Shown here piece by piece: positions 27,333 through 35,120 of a stretch of DNA of 64,000 nucleotides (the stretch's first letter is position 1; each line of letters begins with the position of its first letter). Origin of the DNA: an uncultured Candidatus Berkelbacteria bacterium (lineage in GTDB: Bacteria > Patescibacteriota > UBA1384 > UBA12157 > JAENIV01); contig OY969116.1 in NCBI GenBank assembly GCA_963698075.1, forward strand, positions 83,881-147,880, written 5' to 3'. A program made the position numbers and the translations under genes. Below the pieces are notes generated by a model. That model searched no databases. It had not been told where the DNA came from and saw only the letters and a program-made list of their open reading frames with translations.

Positions 27333-28859
27333 TTACTCCCATTCCATCGTTGCAGGTGGTTTATTGGTTATGTCATAGACTACCCGGTTTATATCCTTAA
27401 TCTCATTGGTGATCCGGGTGGAAATACGCTCCAAAATTCCATAAGGAATTTTGGAAAAATTAGCAGTCATCGCATCCTCTGATTCGATGATCCTAATGAC
27501 GATCGGATATTTGTAACTTCTTTCGTCTCCCTGAATGCCTACACTTTTAATTGGAAGCAACACGGCAAAACTCATCCAAATTTTTTGCCAATAATTAGTC
27601 CTTTTAAGTTCCTCTTCAATTATATGTCCTGCCCCTCGAACAATCTCAGCTTTCTCCTTTGTCACCTCACCAACGATTCTTACTGCTAAACCCGGACCGG
27701 GAAAAACTTGTCTTGTCGTAATTTCCTTTGGTAAGTTTATCTTTCTGGCGATTGCTCTAACTTCATCTTTGTACAGCTCACGTAAGGGCTCATATATTTT
27801 TAATTTTAAATTTTTCGGCAAGCCACCGACATTATGGTGAGATTTTATGTTGGAAGAATTTTTTGTAAGCCCGCTCTCAATCCTATCTGGGTAAATGGTG
27901 CCTTGAACCAAAAAAGTTGCTCCGGTTTCTTTGGCGGCCTTTTGAAAGATTGCAATAAAAATTTTCCCAATAATTTTTCTTTTTGATTCGGGCGAAGTCA
28001 CACCTTTGAGTGCTTGAAAAAATATCGGCCCAGCTTGAATAATTTTTAAATTCAAATCAAAATTCTTGAAGATTTTTTTAATATAATCTTGCTCTCCAAA
28101 TCTCATTAAACCAGTGTCAACATAAACGGCCGTAAGATTTTTGCCAATAGCTTTACTTACAAGAATTGCGGCGACGGACGAATCAATCCCACCCGAAAGA
28201 CCAATAATTGCCTTTTCTTGGCCAAAGGTTTCTTTGGCTTCGGCAATTATTTCATCAATCAGGGTTATTCGTTGTCGTTCCTTTTTTAAATGGCACACCT
28301 CAAAGACAAAATTCTCTAATATTTTTCTACCTCTGCGGGTATGGGTTACCTCGGGGTGGAATTGAACACCAAAAATTTTCATTTTCGGATTTTGATATGC
28401 AGCGATTTTTGAGTTTTCAGTTTCAGCGAGTATTTCAAACCCTCTTGGTAGCCTGGTGACCACATCGCGGTGATTCATCCAAACTAGTTGGCTAGATGAA
28501 ATTTTCGAAAAAATTTTTCCGAGGTTAGTTATCCGAAGTTTGGTTAAACCATACTCACCCGAATTGCCAGCCGAGACTTTTCCGCCAAGCAGATGGGCAA
28601 TAAGTTGATGGCCATAGCAAATTCCTAGAGTGGGGATTTGCTTTTTTAAAAAATTAGAACTGATTTTTGGAGCATTTTTCTCATAGACGGAACAAGCGCC
28701 ACCAGAAAGAACAACCCCTTTAATTTTTTCTGTGTTAAGGGTTTTTTCAAACTTTTTTTCATCGCCGATTATTTCAACATTTATCGCTAAGTCCCGAAGC
28801 CGCCGGCTGATCAAATGACAATATTGTCCGCCAAAATCATAAACTATAATTTTATCCAT
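27333..28859 (-). CDS. guaA: GMP synthase (glutamine-hydrolysing)
   Basis: N-terminal GATase and C-terminal ATP-PPase SGGIDS motif; 508 aa. Confidence 0.9.
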   Translation of the reverse strand: MDKIIVYDFGGQYCHLISRRLRDLAINVEIIGDEKKFEKTLNTEKIKGVVLSGGACSVYEKNAPKISSNFLKKQIPTLGICYGHQLIAHLLGGKVSAGNSGEYGLTKLRITNLGKIFSKISSSQLVWMNHRDVVTRLPRGFEILAETENSKIAAYQNPKMKIFGVQFHPEVTHTRRGRKILENFVFEVCHLKKERQRITLIDEIIAEAKETFGQEKAIIGLSGGIDSSVAAILVSKAIGKNLTAVYVDTGLMRFGEQDYIKKIFKNFDLNLKIIQAGPIFFQALKGVTSPESKRKIIGKIFIAIFQKAAKETGATFLVQGTIYPDRIESGLTKNSSNIKSHHNVGGLPKNLKLKIYEPLRELYKDEVRAIARKINLPKEITTRQVFPGPGLAVRIVGEVTKEKAEIVRGAGHIIEEELKRTNYWQKIWMSFAVLLPIKSVGIQGDERSYKYPIVIRIIESEDAMTANFSKIPYGILERISTRITNEIKDINRVVYDITNKPPATMEWE

Positions 28860-28917
28860 ATATTTTAATTATTAAAATTAGGATACCAATTTCTGAGAAC
28901 AAATTCAACTATTTAAA

Positions 28918-29736
28918 TTATTTAGTGAATTTTTTAATCCGATCCTCAATCGCCCTTTTGGTGGTTGTCCCAATAAATTGCTCTTTAACTTTACCGTTTT
29001 CTAAAATCAAAATATTTGGCAGACTCATTACCCCCAACCGCGCCGAAAGCCCGGGATTTTTAGTGACATCAATTTTATAGAACTTGACTTTATCGTTCCA
29101 AATTTTAGCTAAATCATCCAAGTGAGGTTCAATTGTCTTGCAGGCATGGCACCAAGGCGCCCAAAAGTCTAAAAGCACCATCCCCTTTTTGGAAATCTTA
29201 GCAAATTCTTTTTCCTTTAATTCCTCGAGTTTACCGGACACAGTCTTCCTCCTTTGAACCGTTATCCAAAGGACGATTTCATATAATCCAAACATTGTTG
29301 CCACATAAAATAAATCACCCATTAAAGTGTTTCGAAAGAAAGGCAACCCCATTATATACGATTGCATTAGCCCTGGCAAATTATGGGAATACATCGAGTG
29401 CGGCACGGCCCAGACGGCAAAATTAGTCACGAGGAAAAAGATGATCGAACCGAATAAACTTGATCCGATAATGTTGGGAAGGGTTTTATGGTTTTTCAGC
29501 CATAGACCAATTAGACCAATCATCATAAATGAACCATAGACAGAAAGCATTATCCAAGGGTTATAGAAACCTATAAAGGCATCCGAGATTAACACAGCCA
29601 CTATGGGAATGATTAAAGCATATTTCTTGTTCAAGTAGGTTCCGCCAAACAGAGCTATTGCCGCAATGGGGGCAAAGTTCGGTAAGTGGGGAACCAGTCT
29701 TAAGATAATCCCTGCAAGAATGAAAAAAAATGCCAT
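28918..29736 (-). CDS. polytopic membrane domain (ECF S-component-like?) fused to a C-terminal thioredoxin domain
   Basis: about 6 TM helices followed by WAPWCHACK (CxxC); ATG 29736 preceded by AAAGGAGAA. Confidence 0.6.
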   Translation of the reverse strand: MAFFFILAGIILRLVPHLPNFAPIAAIALFGGTYLNKKYALIIPIVAVLISDAFIGFYNPWIMLSVYGSFMMIGLIGLWLKNHKTLPNIIGSSLFGSIIFFLVTNFAVWAVPHSMYSHNLPGLMQSYIMGLPFFRNTLMGDLFYVATMFGLYEIVLWITVQRRKTVSGKLEELKEKEFAKISKKGMVLLDFWAPWCHACKTIEPHLDDLAKIWNDKVKFYKIDVTKNPGLSARLGVMSLPNILILENGKVKEQFIGTTTKRAIEDRIKKFTK

Positions 29737-29766
29737 TCGTTCTCCTTTCTTCATTGTAGCCAATTT

Positions 29767-30456
29767 TTAAAAACTTTCAAATTTCCAAGTGGTAATATCG
29801 CCATCCGTCACCGGTTGAGCTGAAGCCCCAATCATCGAGTAGCTGCCGTTGTAATAAAATGCCCAATAGTAATTGTCATGGCCGCAGATTCCGGCAATGC
29901 AGGTGACAAACGCTCCCAATTCTTCGTAGATTTGATACTCAACACTAAAGCCATTTTCCTGACCTGTGCGAAGAAGAATCGAAAAAGCAGTATCATTAGT
30001 TTGGAGATTAATGGTATAATTGCCGATATTTTCGATTGCCACGGTTGCTTGGTCGGCTGGCGTAGGGGGCGGCGTGGGTGTTGGGCTTGCCCCGAGCGTA
30101 GTCGAGGGGATTGGCGTCGGGGAGGTTGGTCGTGGCGTAGAGGGTTTTTTAGATGATGGTGTCGGGGTGGGCGTGGGTGTTGAAGTTGATTCATTTGTGT
30201 CATTAGGTTGATCAGTCGCTGCTAAAATTTTCCGGCTCTCTGATGGTTTTTCCTCTTTGCTTGCGGCCACTTGAGTATTTCCTAAGTTGTATTCCAACTG
30301 GGTTATTCTTGTTTCGAGTTTATTTTGTTGTTCTTCCAATTTTTGATTTTTGATTTTTAAGTCAGCGACCGTTAACGCTCCGTAGACAAATACTAAAACA
30401 ATCCCAGCGGTAATTGGTAGCCAAAGGTAACTTAATAGTTTTCTCATGCGAAACAT
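29767..30456 (-). CDS. membrane-anchored DUF4430-like protein (coiled coil, Thr/Pro-rich linker, C-terminal DUF4430-like domain)
   Basis: The C-terminus (GAFVTCIAGICGHDNYYWAFYYNGSYSMIGASAQPVTDGDITTWKF) matches the DUF4430 pattern as recalled (G.FV.sIdG..YWmfyVNg...D.Y...DGD.I.W.y). Confidence 0.6.
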   Translation of the reverse strand: MFRMRKLLSYLWLPITAGIVLVFVYGALTVADLKIKNQKLEEQQNKLETRITQLEYNLGNTQVAASKEEKPSESRKILAATDQPNDTNESTSTPTPTPTPSSKKPSTPRPTSPTPIPSTTLGASPTPTPPPTPADQATVAIENIGNYTINLQTNDTAFSILLRTGQENGFSVEYQIYEELGAFVTCIAGICGHDNYYWAFYYNGSYSMIGASAQPVTDGDITTWKFESF

Positions 30457-30475
30457 TTTTTATCTCCTTTTAATT

Positions 30476-30700
30476 TTAAAAAATCCTTAGCTTCGGTCAT
30501 TCATAGATTGCTAAGGAATTGCCTTTCGACCGAAGGACTTAATACAAAAATTTAAAGTTTTCTGGCTTGTCCTGAGCGAACGAAGTGAGTCGAAGGGCTT
30601 ATTCCTCGACTTTGCTCGGAATAAATCTTTCGTTTTGCTCAAGATTTACAGTAGCGTGACTGCCCCGGATTTCCACCGGGATTACCCTTAAATTTAGGTT
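30476..30700 (-). promoter_or_regulatory. cobalamin (B12) riboswitch-like leader with a terminator attenuator, 5' of the DUF4430 gene
   Basis: The minus-strand RNA GGGUAAUCCCGGUGGAAAUCCGGGGCAGUCACGCUACUGUAA (plus coordinates 30648-30687) matches the cobalamin aptamer core (GGUG.GAA.UCC...GCAG...CGCUACUGU). A partial B12-box AAGCCAGAA lies at 30568-30579. The terminator CCTTAGC...GCTAAGG plus U6 ends 9 nt before the RBS. Confidence 0.55.
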
Positions 30701-30716
30701 GAATTATTAAAGTGAA

Positions 30717-31121
30717 TTATTGTAGCTTCTCGAATCGCCAGTCGATTTTGTCGTTATTTTTAGTCTGGTACTGATCAGAACTAACCGAAGCCAGCTCGTT
30801 ATTGACATAAAACATCCAGTAGCTGTCATTGGTATTGGCCGTACCATCGATTGAGGTGACAAAGACACCCATAGAGGAATCCTCTGCTTTGACATCGTGG
30901 CTGGCTTTCAAAATATCCAAGGCAGTTTTGCCCTCTTGACCATCATAAGCAAGAGTCTTTTCGACTACCGGCTGAAATTGATTGGCAATGCCCGAGACTG
31001 TTTTGTTCACCTGTTTTTTGGAAACATAATTTCCGAGCAGACTGCCGCCAATAATCAAAATTGCCCCCAAAATGATAATGGCAATAAGATTCAACAGTCC
31101 CCATGAGTTCTTCTCAGACAT
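30717..31121 (-). CDS. DUF4430-like small membrane-anchored protein (134 aa)
   Basis: GKTALDILKASHDVKAEDSSMGVFVTSIDGTANTNDSYWMFYVNNELASVSSDQYQTKNNDKIDWRF. Confidence 0.6.
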   Translation of the reverse strand: MSEKNSWGLLNLIAIIILGAILIIGGSLLGNYVSKKQVNKTVSGIANQFQPVVEKTLAYDGQEGKTALDILKASHDVKAEDSSMGVFVTSIDGTANTNDSYWMFYVNNELASVSSDQYQTKNNDKIDWRFEKLQ

Positions 31122-31199
31122 ATTTGCTCCCTTTGTCTAGAAATTAATTTGTTAATACATTCTCAACTTAAAGTTGGAATCCAATTGTGTCAAGACCCC

Positions 31200-31739
31200 T
31201 CAATATTCGATTCCCTTCCTGGCTTTAGTGCCTTTGTCAAAAGGGTGCTTAATTTTTTTCATCTCCGTTACCAAATCAGCGATTTTTTTGAGACGAGCGT
31301 GCGCTTTTCGTCCAGTTAATATTACTTCAGCGGTAGACTGTAGTCGGTCAGCTGTTAGCAATGTTATAACTTCATTAATATCGATTAACTCGAACCAGAT
31401 GGCGACGTTGATTTCGTCGAGGATGACAATATCGTGCTCGCCAGCATTAATAATTTCGGCGGCCCTTTTAAGGCCTTTTTGAGCGGCTCGTTTGTGGGCT
31501 TCTTTTGGTTTTTTATCCTCCATTATTTTATAGTAGCCAATGCCGAAAGACTCGATAAGTATGGGAAGGCGATATTTTTTGATGGCTTTGTGTTCTGAAT
31601 AATCCCCTTTTTTCATAAACTGCACAATTGCCACTTTTTTTCCGGCGCCAATTGCACGTAGCGCCAATCCCAAAGCCGCCGTGGTCTTCCCCTTTCCATC
31701 ACCGGTGTAAATATGAATGAGACCTTTTTCTTTTTTCAT
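31200..31739 (-). CDS. btuR: cob(I)yrinic acid a,c-diamide / corrinoid adenosyltransferase (CobA/CobO/BtuR family)
   Basis: GDGKGKTTAALGLALRAIGAGKKVAIVQFMKG P-loop signature; 179 aa. Confidence 0.8.
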   Translation of the reverse strand: MKKEKGLIHIYTGDGKGKTTAALGLALRAIGAGKKVAIVQFMKKGDYSEHKAIKKYRLPILIESFGIGYYKIMEDKKPKEAHKRAAQKGLKRAAEIINAGEHDIVILDEINVAIWFELIDINEVITLLTADRLQSTAEVILTGRKAHARLKKIADLVTEMKKIKHPFDKGTKARKGIEY

Positions 31740-31801
31740 ACAGACATATCATAATCGTTAAATATCGGGTTCGCAAATATTAACACCGAAAATAATATTC
31801 T

Positions 31802-31817
31802 CATATTCTGCAGAATA
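31802..31817. promoter_or_regulatory. 16-bp perfect palindrome ATATTCTGCAGAATAT in the btuR upstream region
   Basis: read in the sequence; flanked by an extra AATATTCT half-site. Confidence 0.3.
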
Positions 31818-31952
31818 TCGGAATCGTTGGTAAGGATAATCCCTTAAATCTGCTCCAGCATAAATAAGGGATAATAAATAGATTGGGATATAGTTTTTTT
31901 AGATACGAAAACGCCGCCCCCGGAATGGGAACGGCGGTTCGTTACTTAGAGA

Positions 31953-32333
31953 CTACTTCTTGTCGGGGTGCACGCCGGTTATACCGGCATACTTGAAGGC
32001 CTCGAGGGCCTTCACGCAGTCCTTGCACGGCACGCGCTTCTCGGCTTCCATCTGCTCGAGGGTAGCGAACTCTGTGGAGCCTATTGGGCTTGGCAGATGC
32101 TTGCCACAGGCGGCGGTATAGCCGCTGGCAGCATAGCCTCCATCGGAGTAGTTGACATAGTGGGCCGGAGCTTCCGGGTCAGTTTTGTCCCAGACGACCC
32201 ATTGGCAGAGTCGAGCGGTTGGTTGCGGTGGCTCCTTCTTGGATAGCTCGAATATCAGGCAGGGTACAAGTATAGGAGCCAGGAAGAGGACAACCAACAA
32301 CATTGGTGCGTGTGCGTTTTCTCTTTCGCCCAT
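31953..32333 (-). CDS. GC-rich hypothetical secreted or membrane-anchored Cys-containing protein (~127 aa)
   Basis: start chosen at ATG after AAGGAG (MGERENAHAPMLLVVLFLAPIL...); the track ORF extends to 32411. Confidence 0.45.
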   Translation of the reverse strand: MGERENAHAPMLLVVLFLAPILVPCLIFELSKKEPPQPTARLCQWVVWDKTDPEAPAHYVNYSDGGYAASGYTAACGKHLPSPIGSTEFATLEQMEAEKRVPCKDCVKALEAFKYAGITGVHPDKK

Positions 32334-32492
32334 CGACTTTCTCCTTTTGTTCATATGAGACAAGTGATTTATCCACCGTATCGGCGGATTTGTAGTCTCC
32401 ATTCTGCCCAAGATAAGAGAGCTTCTCGAGCAGGAAGGAGACTATAAGATTTTAAGGTCCAAATCAGTTATATCCGATCCTGAAACTTTATC

Positions 32493-32521
32493 ATTATAAC
32501 ATAAAAAAGCTCGAATGTCAA
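32493..32521 (-). promoter_or_regulatory. perfect sigma70 promoter TTGACA-17-TATAAT on the minus strand
   Basis: reverse complement of 32493-32521. Confidence 0.5.
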
Positions 32522-32582
32522 GACGCTAACAGGTTAACCTATACGATATTTTATGCTGGAGCGCAAAAAGTAGTATACAATC

Positions 32583-35120
32583 TTACGAGCACTTACTATA
32601 CCCACAAAAATTACATTTCAAACATCCCTCGCCGAGTTCGAGGATTCCGCCACATTCTGGGCAGGCCGGGGCGTCGCCGTAGTCGGCGATTGAACCAACT
32701 TTTGGCTTGGGTGAAAAGCCGTTACTCATGGCTAAATTATCTTGAGCAATATTGGCATCAGCGGCGGCTAGGTTTCCTTGATCTAATTTGGGCTGCTCGG
32801 CGGTTTCATAGGCTAAATCAAGTTTGACTAGTTCTTTCTGAATGTGTTTTTCCAAAACCTTAGCAATCGCATCTGGCAAAGATAAAATCATCGTCCCATC
32901 GTCACCCCACGTCGGTGTCGGCCCGCGAATGCCTTTGAGTTGATTAATAATTTCTTGGGGGTCGATCCCGGAGCGCAGGGCCAAAGAAATCATCCGGCAA
33001 ATGGCTTCCGCTTTAGCGGCAAAAAAGCCGCCGGCTTTGCCTAAGTGAGAAAAGATTTCAAAGGGTTGACCATTTTCATCGTCGTTAATCGTCACATAAA
33101 GTTTGCCGTAGGCGGTTTTCATTCGATAAGTATATCCGTGAATGATGTCCGGTCGATCGCGCGGAACAATTTTGACCGCCCCGGTGGCCATGACTTTTTC
33201 CGTTTCACCTTCCTTGACTTCCTCGGTCTTGGCGGTGGTAAAGACCTGCGTTTCCCGCGAGCCGTCGCGGTAAACCGTTAGGCCTTTGCAGTTCAGTTTA
33301 TAAGCCAGGAGATAGGCCTGTTTAATATCTTCAACGTTGGCTGAGTGAGGAAAATTAATGGTTTTGGAGACGGCGTTATCGGTATATTTTTGGAAAGCTG
33401 CTTGCATTTTAATATGCCACTCTGGCGAAATATCGTGAGCGGTCACAAAAACTTGGCGGATTTTGGCAGGGATTTCCTCAAAATCTTGAATTGAGTTTTT
33501 GGTGGCGATTTTGTCCATCAATTGAGGGCTATAAAAACCTTCTTCTTTGGCGAATTTCTCAAAAGTCGGATTGACATAAATTTGCTCTAACTCGGCCGTG
33601 CCGTCTTGTTTCCAAATCGATTTTTTCCTGATTACAATCGCGAAAAATGGTTCAATTCCGCCAGCGCAGCCGCCGAGTAAACTAAGCGTTCCGGTGGGAG
33701 CGATCGTCGTAATGGTCGAGTTGCGGCGAGGCGTTTTATTACGATAAATGCTTTGTGCAATATTCGGAAAAGCTCCTCGGGTCTTGGCCAGATTTTCCGA
33801 GGCCTTCACTCCCTCATCATGGATAAATTGCATGATTTTTTCGGCTAGTTTAGTCGCCCTTTCGGAGTTATAGGCAAAGCCCAACTCGGCCAGGAGATCA
33901 GCAAATCCCATCACTCCTAAGCCGATTTTCCGATTACCTTTGGTCCAGCGTTCGATTTCTGGCACAAAATAGCGGTTGGCATCAATGATATTATCCATAA
34001 ACCTGACCGCCAGTTGGGTCACCTGACCTAACCTTTGCCAATTAACCTCATTGTTTTTGATCATCACTGCTAAATTGATTGAGCCTAAATTACATGATTC
34101 ATAAGGCAGCAGTGGTTGCTCGCCGCAGGGATTGGTTGATTCAATTGCGCCTAATGCCGGTGTCGGATTATCCTCGTTCATTTTATCAATAAAAATAATT
34201 CCCGGATCGCCATTTTTCCAGGCATTGTCGCAGATCCGCTCAAAAATATCGCCGGCGCGAAGCTCGCCGGTAATCTTTTTCGTGCGAGGGTTGATTAAAT
34301 CGAATGGTTGATTTTTGGCAATTTTAACCATAAAGTCATTGCCCACCGCCACTGATAAATTAAAATTTAAAAAAGACTTCCCGTCAATTTTGGCATCAAT
34401 CCATTTTTCAATGTCGGGATGAGTAACCGGCAAAATTCCCATGTTGGCGCCGACCCTCACCCCGCCCTGCATCACTTCGTGAGCCATGGTATCAAAAATC
34501 CGCATAAAGGAAAGCGGACCGCCGGCCACGCCGCCAGTTGAGCCGACTTTATCGCCGTGAGGACGCAAACGCCCAAAAGAAAAACCGGTGCCACCACCAC
34601 CCTTGTGGATTAAGGCGGTGTTTTTTAAAGCATCGAAAATCCCTTCCATTGAATCTTCAATCGGGACAACAAAACAGGCGGCTAACTGATGAATTCTTCG
34701 GCCAGCCCCGCGAAGCGTTGGCGAATTAGGGAAAAATTCCAGCCGGGCCATAAGCTCATAAAATTTTTGGGAAACCTCGAGGATTTCTTCGGCGTTTTGG
34801 CCATAAAGTTCTTCGGTTTGGGCAATTGTCCAGGCAACTCTCACTAAAAGATCTTTGGCGGTTTCCTCTTCTTCACCCTCTTCTTTGGCTAAATAGCGTT
34901 TGCCAAGAATTTCTAAGGCATTGGAAGAAAATCGCGGTTCTTCCAGAGTCTTTTCGATATCCCAGAGCGTCTTAGTTGGTTTTTTTAATTTGATCTCTTT
35001 TTTAATAATCTTTGTTGGGGCTTTTTTAGGATTATCAAAAAGAGTTTCAAAATTAGTTTCGTCTGTATTCAAAAGTGAAGCAATCCTCACCTTTTCCGGT
35101 TTCATCAGTTCATTACCCAA
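32583..35120 (-). CDS. nrdJ: class II (adenosylcobalamin-dependent) ribonucleotide reductase
   Basis: NPCGEQPLLPYESCNLGSINL active-site motif; 845 aa; C-terminal CPECGG...CLKCNFCG zinc ribbon. Confidence 0.9.
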   Translation of the reverse strand: MGNELMKPEKVRIASLLNTDETNFETLFDNPKKAPTKIIKKEIKLKKPTKTLWDIEKTLEEPRFSSNALEILGKRYLAKEEGEEEETAKDLLVRVAWTIAQTEELYGQNAEEILEVSQKFYELMARLEFFPNSPTLRGAGRRIHQLAACFVVPIEDSMEGIFDALKNTALIHKGGGGTGFSFGRLRPHGDKVGSTGGVAGGPLSFMRIFDTMAHEVMQGGVRVGANMGILPVTHPDIEKWIDAKIDGKSFLNFNLSVAVGNDFMVKIAKNQPFDLINPRTKKITGELRAGDIFERICDNAWKNGDPGIIFIDKMNEDNPTPALGAIESTNPCGEQPLLPYESCNLGSINLAVMIKNNEVNWQRLGQVTQLAVRFMDNIIDANRYFVPEIERWTKGNRKIGLGVMGFADLLAELGFAYNSERATKLAEKIMQFIHDEGVKASENLAKTRGAFPNIAQSIYRNKTPRRNSTITTIAPTGTLSLLGGCAGGIEPFFAIVIRKKSIWKQDGTAELEQIYVNPTFEKFAKEEGFYSPQLMDKIATKNSIQDFEEIPAKIRQVFVTAHDISPEWHIKMQAAFQKYTDNAVSKTINFPHSANVEDIKQAYLLAYKLNCKGLTVYRDGSRETQVFTTAKTEEVKEGETEKVMATGAVKIVPRDRPDIIHGYTYRMKTAYGKLYVTINDDENGQPFEIFSHLGKAGGFFAAKAEAICRMISLALRSGIDPQEIINQLKGIRGPTPTWGDDGTMILSLPDAIAKVLEKHIQKELVKLDLAYETAEQPKLDQGNLAAADANIAQDNLAMSNGFSPKPKVGSIADYGDAPACPECGGILELGEGCLKCNFCGYSKCS

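Follow-up and report, generated by a model that had tools for sequence, protein, structure and literature searches.

Probable riboswitch-gated vitamin B12 salvage in a Candidatus Berkelbacteria bacterium, with DUF6580 as a predicted corrinoid transporter

Genes of the locus and the DUF6580 membrane protein

We analyzed a stretch of 64,000 nucleotides (64 kb, here called the window; position 1 is its first letter) from contig OY969116.1 of an uncultured Candidatus Berkelbacteria bacterium, and within it a minus-strand locus at positions 28918-35120. The locus encodes a B12-dependent ribonucleotide reductase, an adenosyltransferase, two surface proteins, a cobalamin riboswitch, and an open reading frame (ORF) that joins a membrane domain of the family DUF6580 to a thioredoxin. 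It is likely that the locus serves the salvage of vitamin B12 (corrinoid) for NrdJ, with the riboswitch gating DUF4430b, DUF6580 and trx, and with DUF6580 as a predicted corrinoid transporter. All elements that a first-pass annotation, made from the sequence alone, had listed on the minus strand were recovered at the same coordinates in the ORF list and with curated models. In the order of transcription they are:

32583-35120, minus strand: nrdJ, class II (adenosylcobalamin-dependent) ribonucleotide reductase, 845 amino acids (aa) (NF006417, TIGR02504, Pfam)
31200-31739, minus strand: btuR/cobA, ATP:cob(I)alamin adenosyltransferase, 179 aa (PF02572, TIGR00708)
30717-31121, minus strand: DUF4430a, 134 aa, N-terminal membrane anchor and transcobalamin-beta-like (SLBB) domain (PF14478)
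30544-30698 (Rfam envelope 30537-30731), minus strand: riboswitch aptamer (RF00174, core alignment, covariation)
30478-30540, minus strand: expression platform (sequence, folding, leader alignment)
29767-30456, minus strand: DUF4430b, 229 aa, predicted first gene under riboswitch control (PF14478, translation)
29239-29763, minus strand: DUF6580 domain, aa 1-175 of a 281-aa ORF at 28918-29763 (PF20221, AlphaFold2, Foldseek)
28918-29238, minus strand: thioredoxin, 106 aa from its own GTG, here in frame with DUF6580 (PF00085)

The membrane half of the 281-aa ORF had been annotated as a polytopic membrane protein, which it is, but that description missed the DUF6580 domain with its S-component/BtuM-like fold, the interesting part of the protein. 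The domain matched PF20221 with 171.7 bits (cut-off 27; 1.9e-50) over aa 11-164, and its homologues begin at M10 (nt 29736). The closest homologues of the membrane domain are 60-88% identical, have lengths of 168-232 aa (mostly 172-196) and match PF20221 alone, and the family as a whole comprises 5,838 clusters at 50% identity with E <= 1e-3, nearly all of 170-200 aa. NCBI labels the relatives "DUF6580 family putative transport protein" and nothing more. Our literature search found no paper naming DUF6580 or PF20221 and nothing relevant on cobalamin transporters of Patescibacteria or cobalamin riboswitches of the Candidate Phyla Radiation (CPR), and the text of a survey of the S-component fold (PMC11109136) does not name the family.

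An AlphaFold2 model based on 51 homologues contained six long helices (predicted local distance difference test, pLDDT, 90.8; predicted template modelling score, pTM, 0.82). When this model was compared with the PDB using Foldseek, the top match was BtuM with cyanocobalamin (8c7p; template modelling scores 0.69/0.68, probability 1.00), followed by the energy-coupling factor (ECF) S-components PanT, BioY, RibU, FolT and ThiT, and the domain has the ECF S-component fold of approximately 20 kDa that is also found in the BtuM family. The positive-inside rule places both termini of DUF6580 in the cytoplasm and the conserved motifs PHxPNF, GFYNP and PHSxYxH on the outer face.

BtuM of Thiobacillus denitrificans (PDB 6FFV, 8C7P, 8OVV; Rempel et al. 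2018, PMC6072759) was first predicted from the co-localization of its gene with btuB, its family was defined by jackhmmer searches starting from BtuM_Td, and it needs Cys80 in loop 3 as cobalt ligand and decyanation catalyst. Neither phmmer nor a profile of the 51 sequences found a BtuM chain in the PDB at E <= 10, and the identity to BtuM in the structural alignment is 16%. The DUF6580 domain of the window has no cysteine at all and thus lacks the cobalt-ligating residue, no invariant or near-invariant cysteine column exists among the 51 homologues, and its conserved extracellular motifs are the three named above. Because there is no detectable sequence relation and no counterpart of Cys80, DUF6580 is not a member of the BtuM family; it probably works like BtuM nonetheless. 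The two also differ in distribution, BtuM being proteobacterial while DUF6580 is found mainly in Patescibacteria (CPR), where it is usually paired with a DUF4430 surface binder.

Searches of the PDB with the single sequence or the profile gave nothing significant, and the sole match (E = 0.64), over helices 1-2 and a "PN" motif, was to CbrT of Lactobacillus delbrueckii, a B12-specific S-component (ECF-CbrT; PDB 6FNP; Santos et al. 2018, PMC5997447); for this domain the comparison of structures alone was informative. The classical Gram-negative route, BtuB-BtuFCD, follows the same logic of a capture protein and a membrane transporter under a cobalamin riboswitch. Unlike that route, the locus described here has no BtuF-type periplasmic binder, type II ABC (ATP-binding cassette) permease or ATPase, and CPR bacteria have no outer membrane.

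The genes around DUF6580 tie it to corrinoids. NrdJ passed both equivalog thresholds, those of NF006417 (1060.7 bits, cut-off 961) and TIGR02504 (673.7 bits, cut-off 399.95), and has the Pfam domains Ribonuc_red_lgC, lgN and TSCPD. BtuR matched PF02572 (1e-61) and TIGR00708 (188.3 bits, cut-off 167.75), and the P-loop GDGKGKTT is present in its sequence. Class II NrdJ is a consumer of adenosylcobalamin, and BtuR/CobA adenosylates corrinoids. Both proteins that had been called DUF4430-like exceeded the Pfam cut-off of 23.8 bits for PF14478, DUF4430a with 67.4 bits (1.5e-18, aa 64-132) and DUF4430b with 43.5 bits (4.4e-11, aa 154-227). DUF4430a has the hydrophobic N-terminal helix LLNLIAIIILGAILIIGGSLLG, and it is outside riboswitch control because its gene lies upstream of the riboswitch. 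In DUF4430b the membrane anchor is followed by a coiled-coil segment, and a linker of about 60 aa rich in Pro, Thr and Ser leads on to the transcobalamin-beta-like domain at the C-terminus.

Thirty-five DUF4430 proteins whose genes neighbour DUF6580 were combined into a profile, and of its ten best matches in the PDB nine were B12 carriers. Among them were transcobalamin-1 (7e-6), transcobalamin-2 (1.2e-3) and intrinsic factor (4e-3), each matched in its B12-binding beta domain; the exception, 3u7z, is annotated as a putative metal-binding protein. From this homology and from context we infer that DUF4430a and DUF4430b are transcobalamin-like corrinoid binders. A literature search for PF14478 itself returned nothing relevant. 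That this bacterial SLBB clade scavenges B12, often with two paralogues in one operon, was a prediction of Burroughs, Iyer and Aravind (2007; PMC1796856). The window proteins share with those bacterial proteins, and with transcobalamin, haptocorrin and intrinsic factor, the homology of the beta domain, and they too are membrane-anchored and extracytoplasmic, with two paralogues per operon. The partner is different: the operons of transcobalamin-like SLBB genes reported in 2007 contained CbiO/CbiQ, which is ECF-type, and not DUF6580 (PMC1796856). In contrast to the animal transcobalamins, the DUF4430 proteins of the window have no alpha/alpha-toroid domain, which in animals encloses B12 together with the beta domain as a sandwich; this domain does occur in one locus of the survey below (L021) and in several Magasanikbacteria-type loci.

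Species genomes of the GTDB were scanned, yielding 549 relatives, and the best 80 loci plus metagenomic ones were examined, for a total of 82 distinct loci. These came mostly from Patescibacteria of many classes and were annotated over approximately 5 kb each with profiles built from the window's own proteins, while riboswitches were searched for within 2.5 kb. A DUF4430 gene lay directly 5' of DUF6580 in 66 of the 82 loci, NrdJ was present in 24 and CobA/BtuR in 23, and Trx lay directly 3' of DUF6580 in 16. At least 27 loci had a cobalamin-clan riboswitch at or above the gathering score, a lower bound since the cores of L003 and L012 are visible but contain insertions that push their scores below the threshold. 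All 27 riboswitches were on the DUF6580 strand and 26 were upstream of DUF6580, the next gene being DUF4430 in 23 (L014 and L085 are counted here; in both, the longest ORF for DUF4430 runs into the coordinates of the aptamer), a TonB-dependent receptor in two and DUF6580 in one. The Berkelbacteria-type relatives, including the complete genome CP011213.1, share the order ftsA, ftsZ, nrdJ, btuR, DUF4430, gap, DUF4430, DUF6580, trx, the ftsA-ftsZ-nrdJ synteny being kept. Six loci without CobA had a PduO-type adenosyltransferase (PF01923, 1.5e-57) directly downstream of DUF6580, as in L046 (3012-3650); two non-homologous adenosyltransferases, CobA/BtuR and the PduO type, thus fill one step in the same CPR neighbourhood.

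In diderm bacteria a riboswitch-controlled TonB receptor replaces DUF4430. Two Ignavibacteriales loci (L047, 1-3037; L078, 1-3010) have the order riboswitch, TonB-dependent receptor, DUF6580, and in a Chitinophagaceae locus (L062, 2231-5088) a riboswitch of 78 bits immediately precedes DUF6580 and another, of 81 bits, precedes a TonB receptor. In L021 (241-3025) riboswitch and DUF4430 are followed by an alpha/alpha-toroid protein and then by DUF6580, an order that echoes the two-domain animal transcobalamin. In one 337-aa protein (P0236), DUF6580 (aa 5-165) is naturally joined to DUF4430 (aa 255-329) through an extra transmembrane helix, and this architecture supports both a physical partnership of the two families and the proposed topology. 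It is because DUF6580 is tied to DUF4430, to cobalamin riboswitches, to TonB receptors in diderms and to DUF4430 in this natural fusion that we predict it to be a corrinoid transporter.

How such a transporter would be energized is a separate question. DUF6580 could be an ordinary group-II ECF S-component that binds B12 and depends on a shared EcfA/A'/T module encoded elsewhere, as CbrT does, and genes of group-II S-components are normally scattered over the genome. We give this a real chance, if clearly less than an even one, and it concerns energization only, leaving the substrate as predicted. Several observations count against it: neither an ABC ATPase nor an EcfT family recurred in the 82 neighbourhoods and no ABC signature motif was found in the 64-kb window; the structure most similar to DUF6580 is that of BtuM, a solitary transporter; in the Ignavibacteriales and Chitinophagaceae contigs DUF6580 is found with TonB receptors, as BtuM is; and helix 1 of DUF6580, inspected by eye, has no AxxxA motif.

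The cobalamin riboswitch and its expression platform

When the window was compared with every Rfam family, a single hit emerged in the entire 64 kb, RF00174 (Cobalamin) at 30537-30731 on the minus strand, which scored 33.1 bits (gathering score 31.5; E = 1.2e-4) and covered the full model (positions 1-189). This is the match that the first-pass annotation had expected when it proposed a cobalamin riboswitch here, and the core RNA strings it quoted, along with the box AAGCCAGAA, are present in the sequence. Of the two results that this annotation would have taken as its refutation, the lack of a significant Rfam cobalamin hit and of any DUF4430 match in the two proteins, neither occurred. Its estimate of about 225 nt for the leader has to be corrected, as the intergenic leader measures 260 nt. 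The parts of the riboswitch and its platform are:

30698-30646, minus strand: aptamer core, 5' half (leader alignment)
30645-30569, minus strand: peripheral insertion of about 80 nt at P6 (leader alignment)
30568-30557, minus strand: B12-box-like AAGCCAGAAAAC (sequence)
30556-30544, minus strand: closing 3' strand of the aptamer (sequence)
30540-30528, minus strand: invariant anti-terminator strand AAGUCCUUCGGUC (identical in six of six aligned leaders)
30538-30521, minus strand: small hairpin, the alternative to the anti-terminator pairing (folding)
30517-30510, minus strand: terminator arm UCCUUAGC (sequence)
30498-30491, minus strand: GACCGAAG within the 18-nt terminator loop (sequence)
30491-30484, minus strand: terminator arm GCUAAGGA (sequence)
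30483-30478, minus strand: U6 run, seven bases before the Shine-Dalgarno sequence (sequence)
30470-30464, minus strand: Shine-Dalgarno sequence AAAGGAG of DUF4430b (sequence)

The borderline score is due solely to this insertion at P6. In the corresponding gap, relatives with the same gene order hold cobalamin-clan riboswitches of 41-59 bits, and in the leader alignment the window core is almost identical to the cores of its nearest relatives L086, L088 and L001, three minimal aptamers that lack the insertion; that of L001 is called RF01689 (AdoCbl-II) with 41 bits. The insertion is common to the window, L006 and L014. Among 12 minimal-type cobalamin riboswitches taken from the syntenic position in different CPR lineages (L001, L086 and L088 of this set share the window's core), compensatory double changes occur at 9 of 14 consensus pairs. 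On these comparative grounds we regard the riboswitch as genuine despite its score.

Close relatives differ in whether P6 carries the insertion, those without it being assigned to RF01689 (AdoCbl-II type) and those with it to RF00174 (regions compared: window 30569-30645, minus strand; L086 1250-1450; L088 515-785; L001 5640-5835; L006 1548-1810), and the aptamer of L003 has a different insertion at another place. Since peripheral elements of cobalamin riboswitches have been reported to affect the form of cobalamin that is sensed, ligand selectivity may differ among these nearly identical cores. Compared with clan CL00101 (RF00174 and RF01689), the riboswitch shares the conserved core, the B12-box-like AAGCCAGAAAAC, covarying helices and an OFF-type terminator platform before uptake genes. 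It differs in having a minimal RF01689-type core with an added P6 insertion, absent from L086, L088 and L001, in being followed by the invariant strand AAGUCCUUCGGUC and a hairpin, and in its position, for it may act inside an operon, after btuR and DUF4430a, and not only at a 5' end.

A hairpin with a U6 run before the ribosome-binding site AAAGGAG and the complementarity of CTTCGGTC to GACCGAAG, both noted in the first-pass annotation, are found in the sequence; a simple terminator scan skips this terminator because its loop exceeds the scanner's limit of 8 nt. The strand AAGUCCUUCGGUC begins a few bases past the closing strand of the aptamer, and ViennaRNA gives two mutually exclusive folds of -13.7 kcal/mol each, one with the small hairpin and the terminator, and one in which AAGUCCUUCGGUC is paired as an anti-terminator with GACCGA...AGGAUUU, the 3' half of the terminator. 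The anti-terminator strand and a hairpin with U run are kept in relatives, and L006, L009 and L015 have the complementary GACC segment in the 5' arm or the loop of the terminator, which gives the same logic. Most other Berkelbacteria-type leaders contain a similar hairpin, CCUU-CGGUCGA-RAGG, and its stem in L004 has one compensatory change (CCUU/AAGG to CCUG/CAGG). These features suggest an OFF switch that acts by transcription termination, and the earlier proposal of a riboswitch with a terminator platform controlling a surface capture protein is supported. From its position past btuR and DUF4430a, the riboswitch would gate DUF4430b, DUF6580 and trx only. Either it attenuates transcription that reads through from upstream, or it may act on transcripts of its own promoter, for which a weak promoter-like site at 30745-30716 is a candidate.

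A nearly invariant hairpin, AAGUCCUUCGGUCGARAGGC (window 30521-30540, minus strand), lies 3' of the aptamer in Berkelbacteria-type leaders (L001, L003, L006, L007, L009, L012, L013, L015, L016, L018, L020, L022 and L024), even where the downstream terminators are wholly different. Its loop is complementary to the terminator loop or arm in several of the loci but not in all, and the hairpin does not fit the canonical L13 kissing-loop pattern. A kissing interaction of L5 (UCACG/UCCCG) with this L13-like loop (CGGUCGA) was considered and rejected, as it would have at most 2-3 bp and shows no covariation, L5 varying between A and C while the hairpin is constant.

The thioredoxin gene and the inserted cassette

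The C-terminal part of the 281-aa ORF is a probable thioredoxin, matching PF00085 at 1e-23 over aa 181-278 and PDB thioredoxins down to 4e-24. It fell slightly below the equivalog cut-off of TIGR01068 (93.3 against 96.8 bits), and its active site is WCHAC (29137-29151, minus strand), not WCGPC, the cysteines being C206 and C209 of the fused ORF. The place where the two parts meet is:

29236-29251, minus strand: junction, with the trx Shine-Dalgarno sequence AAGGAGG at 29251-29245, the spacer AAGACT at 29244-29239 and the start codon GTG at 29238-29236 (alignments)

Sequence alignments and a degenerate pattern scan of JGI metagenomes gave seven relatives that share this junction. In all seven the spacer between Shine-Dalgarno sequence and start codon (GTG or ATG) has 5 nt, whereas it has 6 nt in the window, and in all seven DUF6580 and trx are two separate, overlapping genes. 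The fused ORF exists because this one extra base puts the frame of DUF6580 in frame with trx. The Shine-Dalgarno sequence and GTG start of trx are intact in the window, so free thioredoxin can still be made. No fusion of DUF6580 with thioredoxin turned up in the seven junction relatives, in any of the 82 loci, or among the best 120 homologues and the best 150 representatives of the family. Relatives encode trx as a gene of its own, of 103-107 aa, which shares 25 nt with the end of DUF6580 in another frame or starts 23 nt past it. The first-pass annotation had suggested that a membrane-thioredoxin fusion might be a novel component for uptake or reduction. With a singleton made by one spacer base, and relatives that keep two genes, this suggestion is not supported in that form, and the fusion is not to be relied on.

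It is quite conceivable, although we would put it below even, that the extra base and with it the fused ORF are a sequencing or assembly error and that the genome has two overlapping genes like its relatives. Among the eight sequences with this junction the extra base is unique. The short reads of run ERR10755944, apparently from the same organism, have been assembled independently (Logan; contigs L089, L094 and L095), and this assembly, compared with window positions 27333-35120, is fragmented exactly here: it breaks just past the ORF of the cassette described below, at the riboswitch (where L089 ends) and inside trx (where L095 starts), leaving the junction uncovered, and its guaA-bearing contig ends 152 nt short of the junction region. 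Exact-sequence look-ups gave no match for DUF4430b or for three start-codon variants of the fused ORF. Such breaks may reflect strain heterogeneity or low coverage precisely over the riboswitch-controlled genes. On the other side, the insertion is outside any homopolymer run, the neighbouring nrdJ (845 aa), guaA (508 aa), btuR and DUF4430a are intact and, like the orphan ORF of the cassette, identical in the independent assembly, and the C-terminal tails of DUF6580 proteins vary by indels anyway, as in P0001 and L091.

What the thioredoxin does is a question apart from the fusion. Class II ribonucleotide reductases use thioredoxin as reductant, and Trx accompanies DUF6580 solely in a Berkelbacteria-like clade that also carries nrdJ-btuR (16 of 82 loci). 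It is most likely the hydrogen donor of NrdJ or a clustered housekeeping thioredoxin and not a core component of uptake. We consider it unlikely that Trx is instead a partner of the transporter that reduces or de-ligands cob(III)alamin at the inner face of DUF6580, taking the place of the BtuM cysteine, and that the fusion is real and adaptive. Such a role would agree with the translational coupling of trx to DUF6580 through the 25-nt overlap in the window's clade, with its place under the same B12-OFF riboswitch, with the cytoplasmic C-terminus of DUF6580 (positive-inside residues, architecture of P0236), which makes a fusion topologically sensible, with the lack of cysteine in DUF6580 whereas BtuM needs Cys80, and with an unusually variable CxxC dipeptide in the window's clade. 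Against it, Trx is 3' of DUF6580 in the one nrdJ-btuR clade alone, 8 of those 16 loci have the canonical WCGPC, the fusion is a one-base singleton, the known reductant role in class II enzymes offers another use, and a literature search for thioredoxin acting on cobalamin or aquacobalamin found no precedent.

The window's subclade has CHAC, CKTC, CQGC, CHTC, CGAC and CAAC at the active site (trx genes compared: L001, L003, L004, L006, L008, L013, L086, L088 and L090-L093), while other Berkelbacteria keep CGPC. This variability is unusual for a housekeeping thioredoxin.

A promoter-like site, TTGCCA-17-TATAAT (11 of 12 positions), lies inside DUF6580 at 29379-29351 on the minus strand, approximately 105 nt 5' of where trx begins. 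Transcription from it could free trx from the riboswitch. The conserved codons Tyr-Ile-Met form its -10 box, and conservation cannot separate a promoter from a coding constraint at this place.

At the other end of the locus the first reading had missed a cassette of 840 nt that separates nrdJ from btuR and has a promoter, an ORF and a terminator of its own:

31912-32521, minus strand: inserted cassette, within the intergenic region 31740-32582 (promoter/terminator scan, GC content)

The cassette has a perfect sigma-70 promoter (TTGACA-17-TATAAT, 32521-32493, minus strand), a structured 5' untranslated region of approximately 160 nt (transcript fold z = -7.4 against shuffled controls), an ORF of 126 aa from the ATG at 32333 to the stop at 31953 (minus strand) with a good Shine-Dalgarno sequence and a hydrophobic N-terminal helix, and a strong intrinsic terminator at 31936-31912 (minus strand). 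The GC content of the ORF is 57.7%, against 44% for the window. No Pfam or NCBIfam match was found for it, and among 5.8 billion proteins its sole homologue was itself. One relative (L087, 3347-3814) has the same cassette promoter, 5' end and terminator enclosing a different small ORF, the cassette is reproduced on contig L094 of the independent assembly, and more distant relatives do not have it between nrdJ and btuR. With its own promoter and terminator, no homologues and another ORF in L087, we rejected the cassette as a part of the B12 module; it looks like a variable element of foreign origin that interrupts the module. Because it is self-contained, nrdJ and btuR are not co-transcribed in this genome. 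The annotation of a compact corrinoid-salvage module beside a B12-dependent reductase is supported, with the qualification that nrdJ is split from btuR here by the cassette.

Past the cassette terminator, btuR has no Shine-Dalgarno sequence, and a -10-like TATGAT is found about 8 nt 5' of its ATG both in the window (31739-31776, minus strand) and in L087 (3790-3815). Because of these two features the sequence suggests that the btuR transcript begins past that terminator and is leaderless or almost so.

Proposed corrinoid import and its significance

The reading we favour is one in which DUF6580 is most likely a corrinoid transporter of the cytoplasmic membrane, fed by transcobalamin-like surface binders. 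The DUF4430 proteins would capture corrinoid outside the cell, DUF4430a on a short tether and DUF4430b on a long tether of coiled coil and Pro/Thr-rich linker that would be expressed only when B12 is scarce, and they would pass it to DUF6580 as the carrier across the cytoplasmic membrane. BtuR would adenosylate the imported corrinoid and NrdJ would use the product. When intracellular cobalamin is sufficient, the ligand-bound aptamer would favour the terminator and stop transcription before DUF4430b, DUF6580 and trx, while btuR and DUF4430a would stay on.

Five points weigh against this reading. The riboswitch of the window is only 1.6 bits over the Rfam cut-off, and 55 of the 82 loci have no riboswitch at gathering score within 2.5 kb. 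No element of the aptamer was found that would sequester the anti-terminator strand in the ligand-bound state, the complementarity of L5 being unconvincing. It would be odd for the reductant of NrdJ to be switched off under plentiful B12, and for a thioredoxin with that function one would have to assume an additional promoter, another trx gene in the genome or termination that is leaky. Finally, we know of no transport or binding experiment for any DUF6580 or any bacterial DUF4430 of this type.

That DUF6580 instead handles cobalt, cobinamide or a lower-ligand base, or is a membrane dock or sensor for DUF4430 and no transporter, is improbable: no genes for assembly of the corrin ring or the nucleotide loop were found in the window (motif scan) or the neighbourhoods, so that NrdJ could make no use of cobalt or precursors, the partner adenosyltransferases act on corrinoids, the diderm partners are TonB receptors under cobalamin riboswitches, and no kinase or output domain is fused to DUF6580 in the 150 best representatives.

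It is tempting to speculate further, on a rather doubtful footing, that DUF4430 and DUF6580 together form an undescribed two-part corrinoid importer without an ATPase, a tethered transcobalamin-like binder with a solitary carrier of S-component fold, which would be the main entry of B12 in Patescibacteria (CPR) and would have the role of BtuM behind a BtuB-like receptor in diderms. The thiol chemistry of the BtuM cysteine would then come, in the clade of the Berkelbacteria, from a translationally coupled thioredoxin whose CxxC evolves fast, the two genes being caught here in the act of fusing. If true, this would explain what a family of about 5,800 sequence clusters does.

The riboswitch, btuR, nrdJ and DUF4430 are of kinds already known. 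What is new, and well supported as such, is the prediction of DUF6580 as a transporter, on which no publication was found; it gives the family a function, with DUF4430 as partner and the cobalamin riboswitch as regulator, and describes a pattern that is broad across the phylogeny. The CPR/Patescibacteria are a very large and mostly uncultivated radiation with minimal genomes that cannot make B12, and many of them depend on a B12-dependent ribonucleotide reductase. In many B12-dependent prokaryotes the membrane importers of the vitamin are still unidentified (PMC6072759). The prediction bears on transport by solitary S-components that have no ECF motor, and on B12 dependence as one of the foundations of symbiosis in CPR bacteria.

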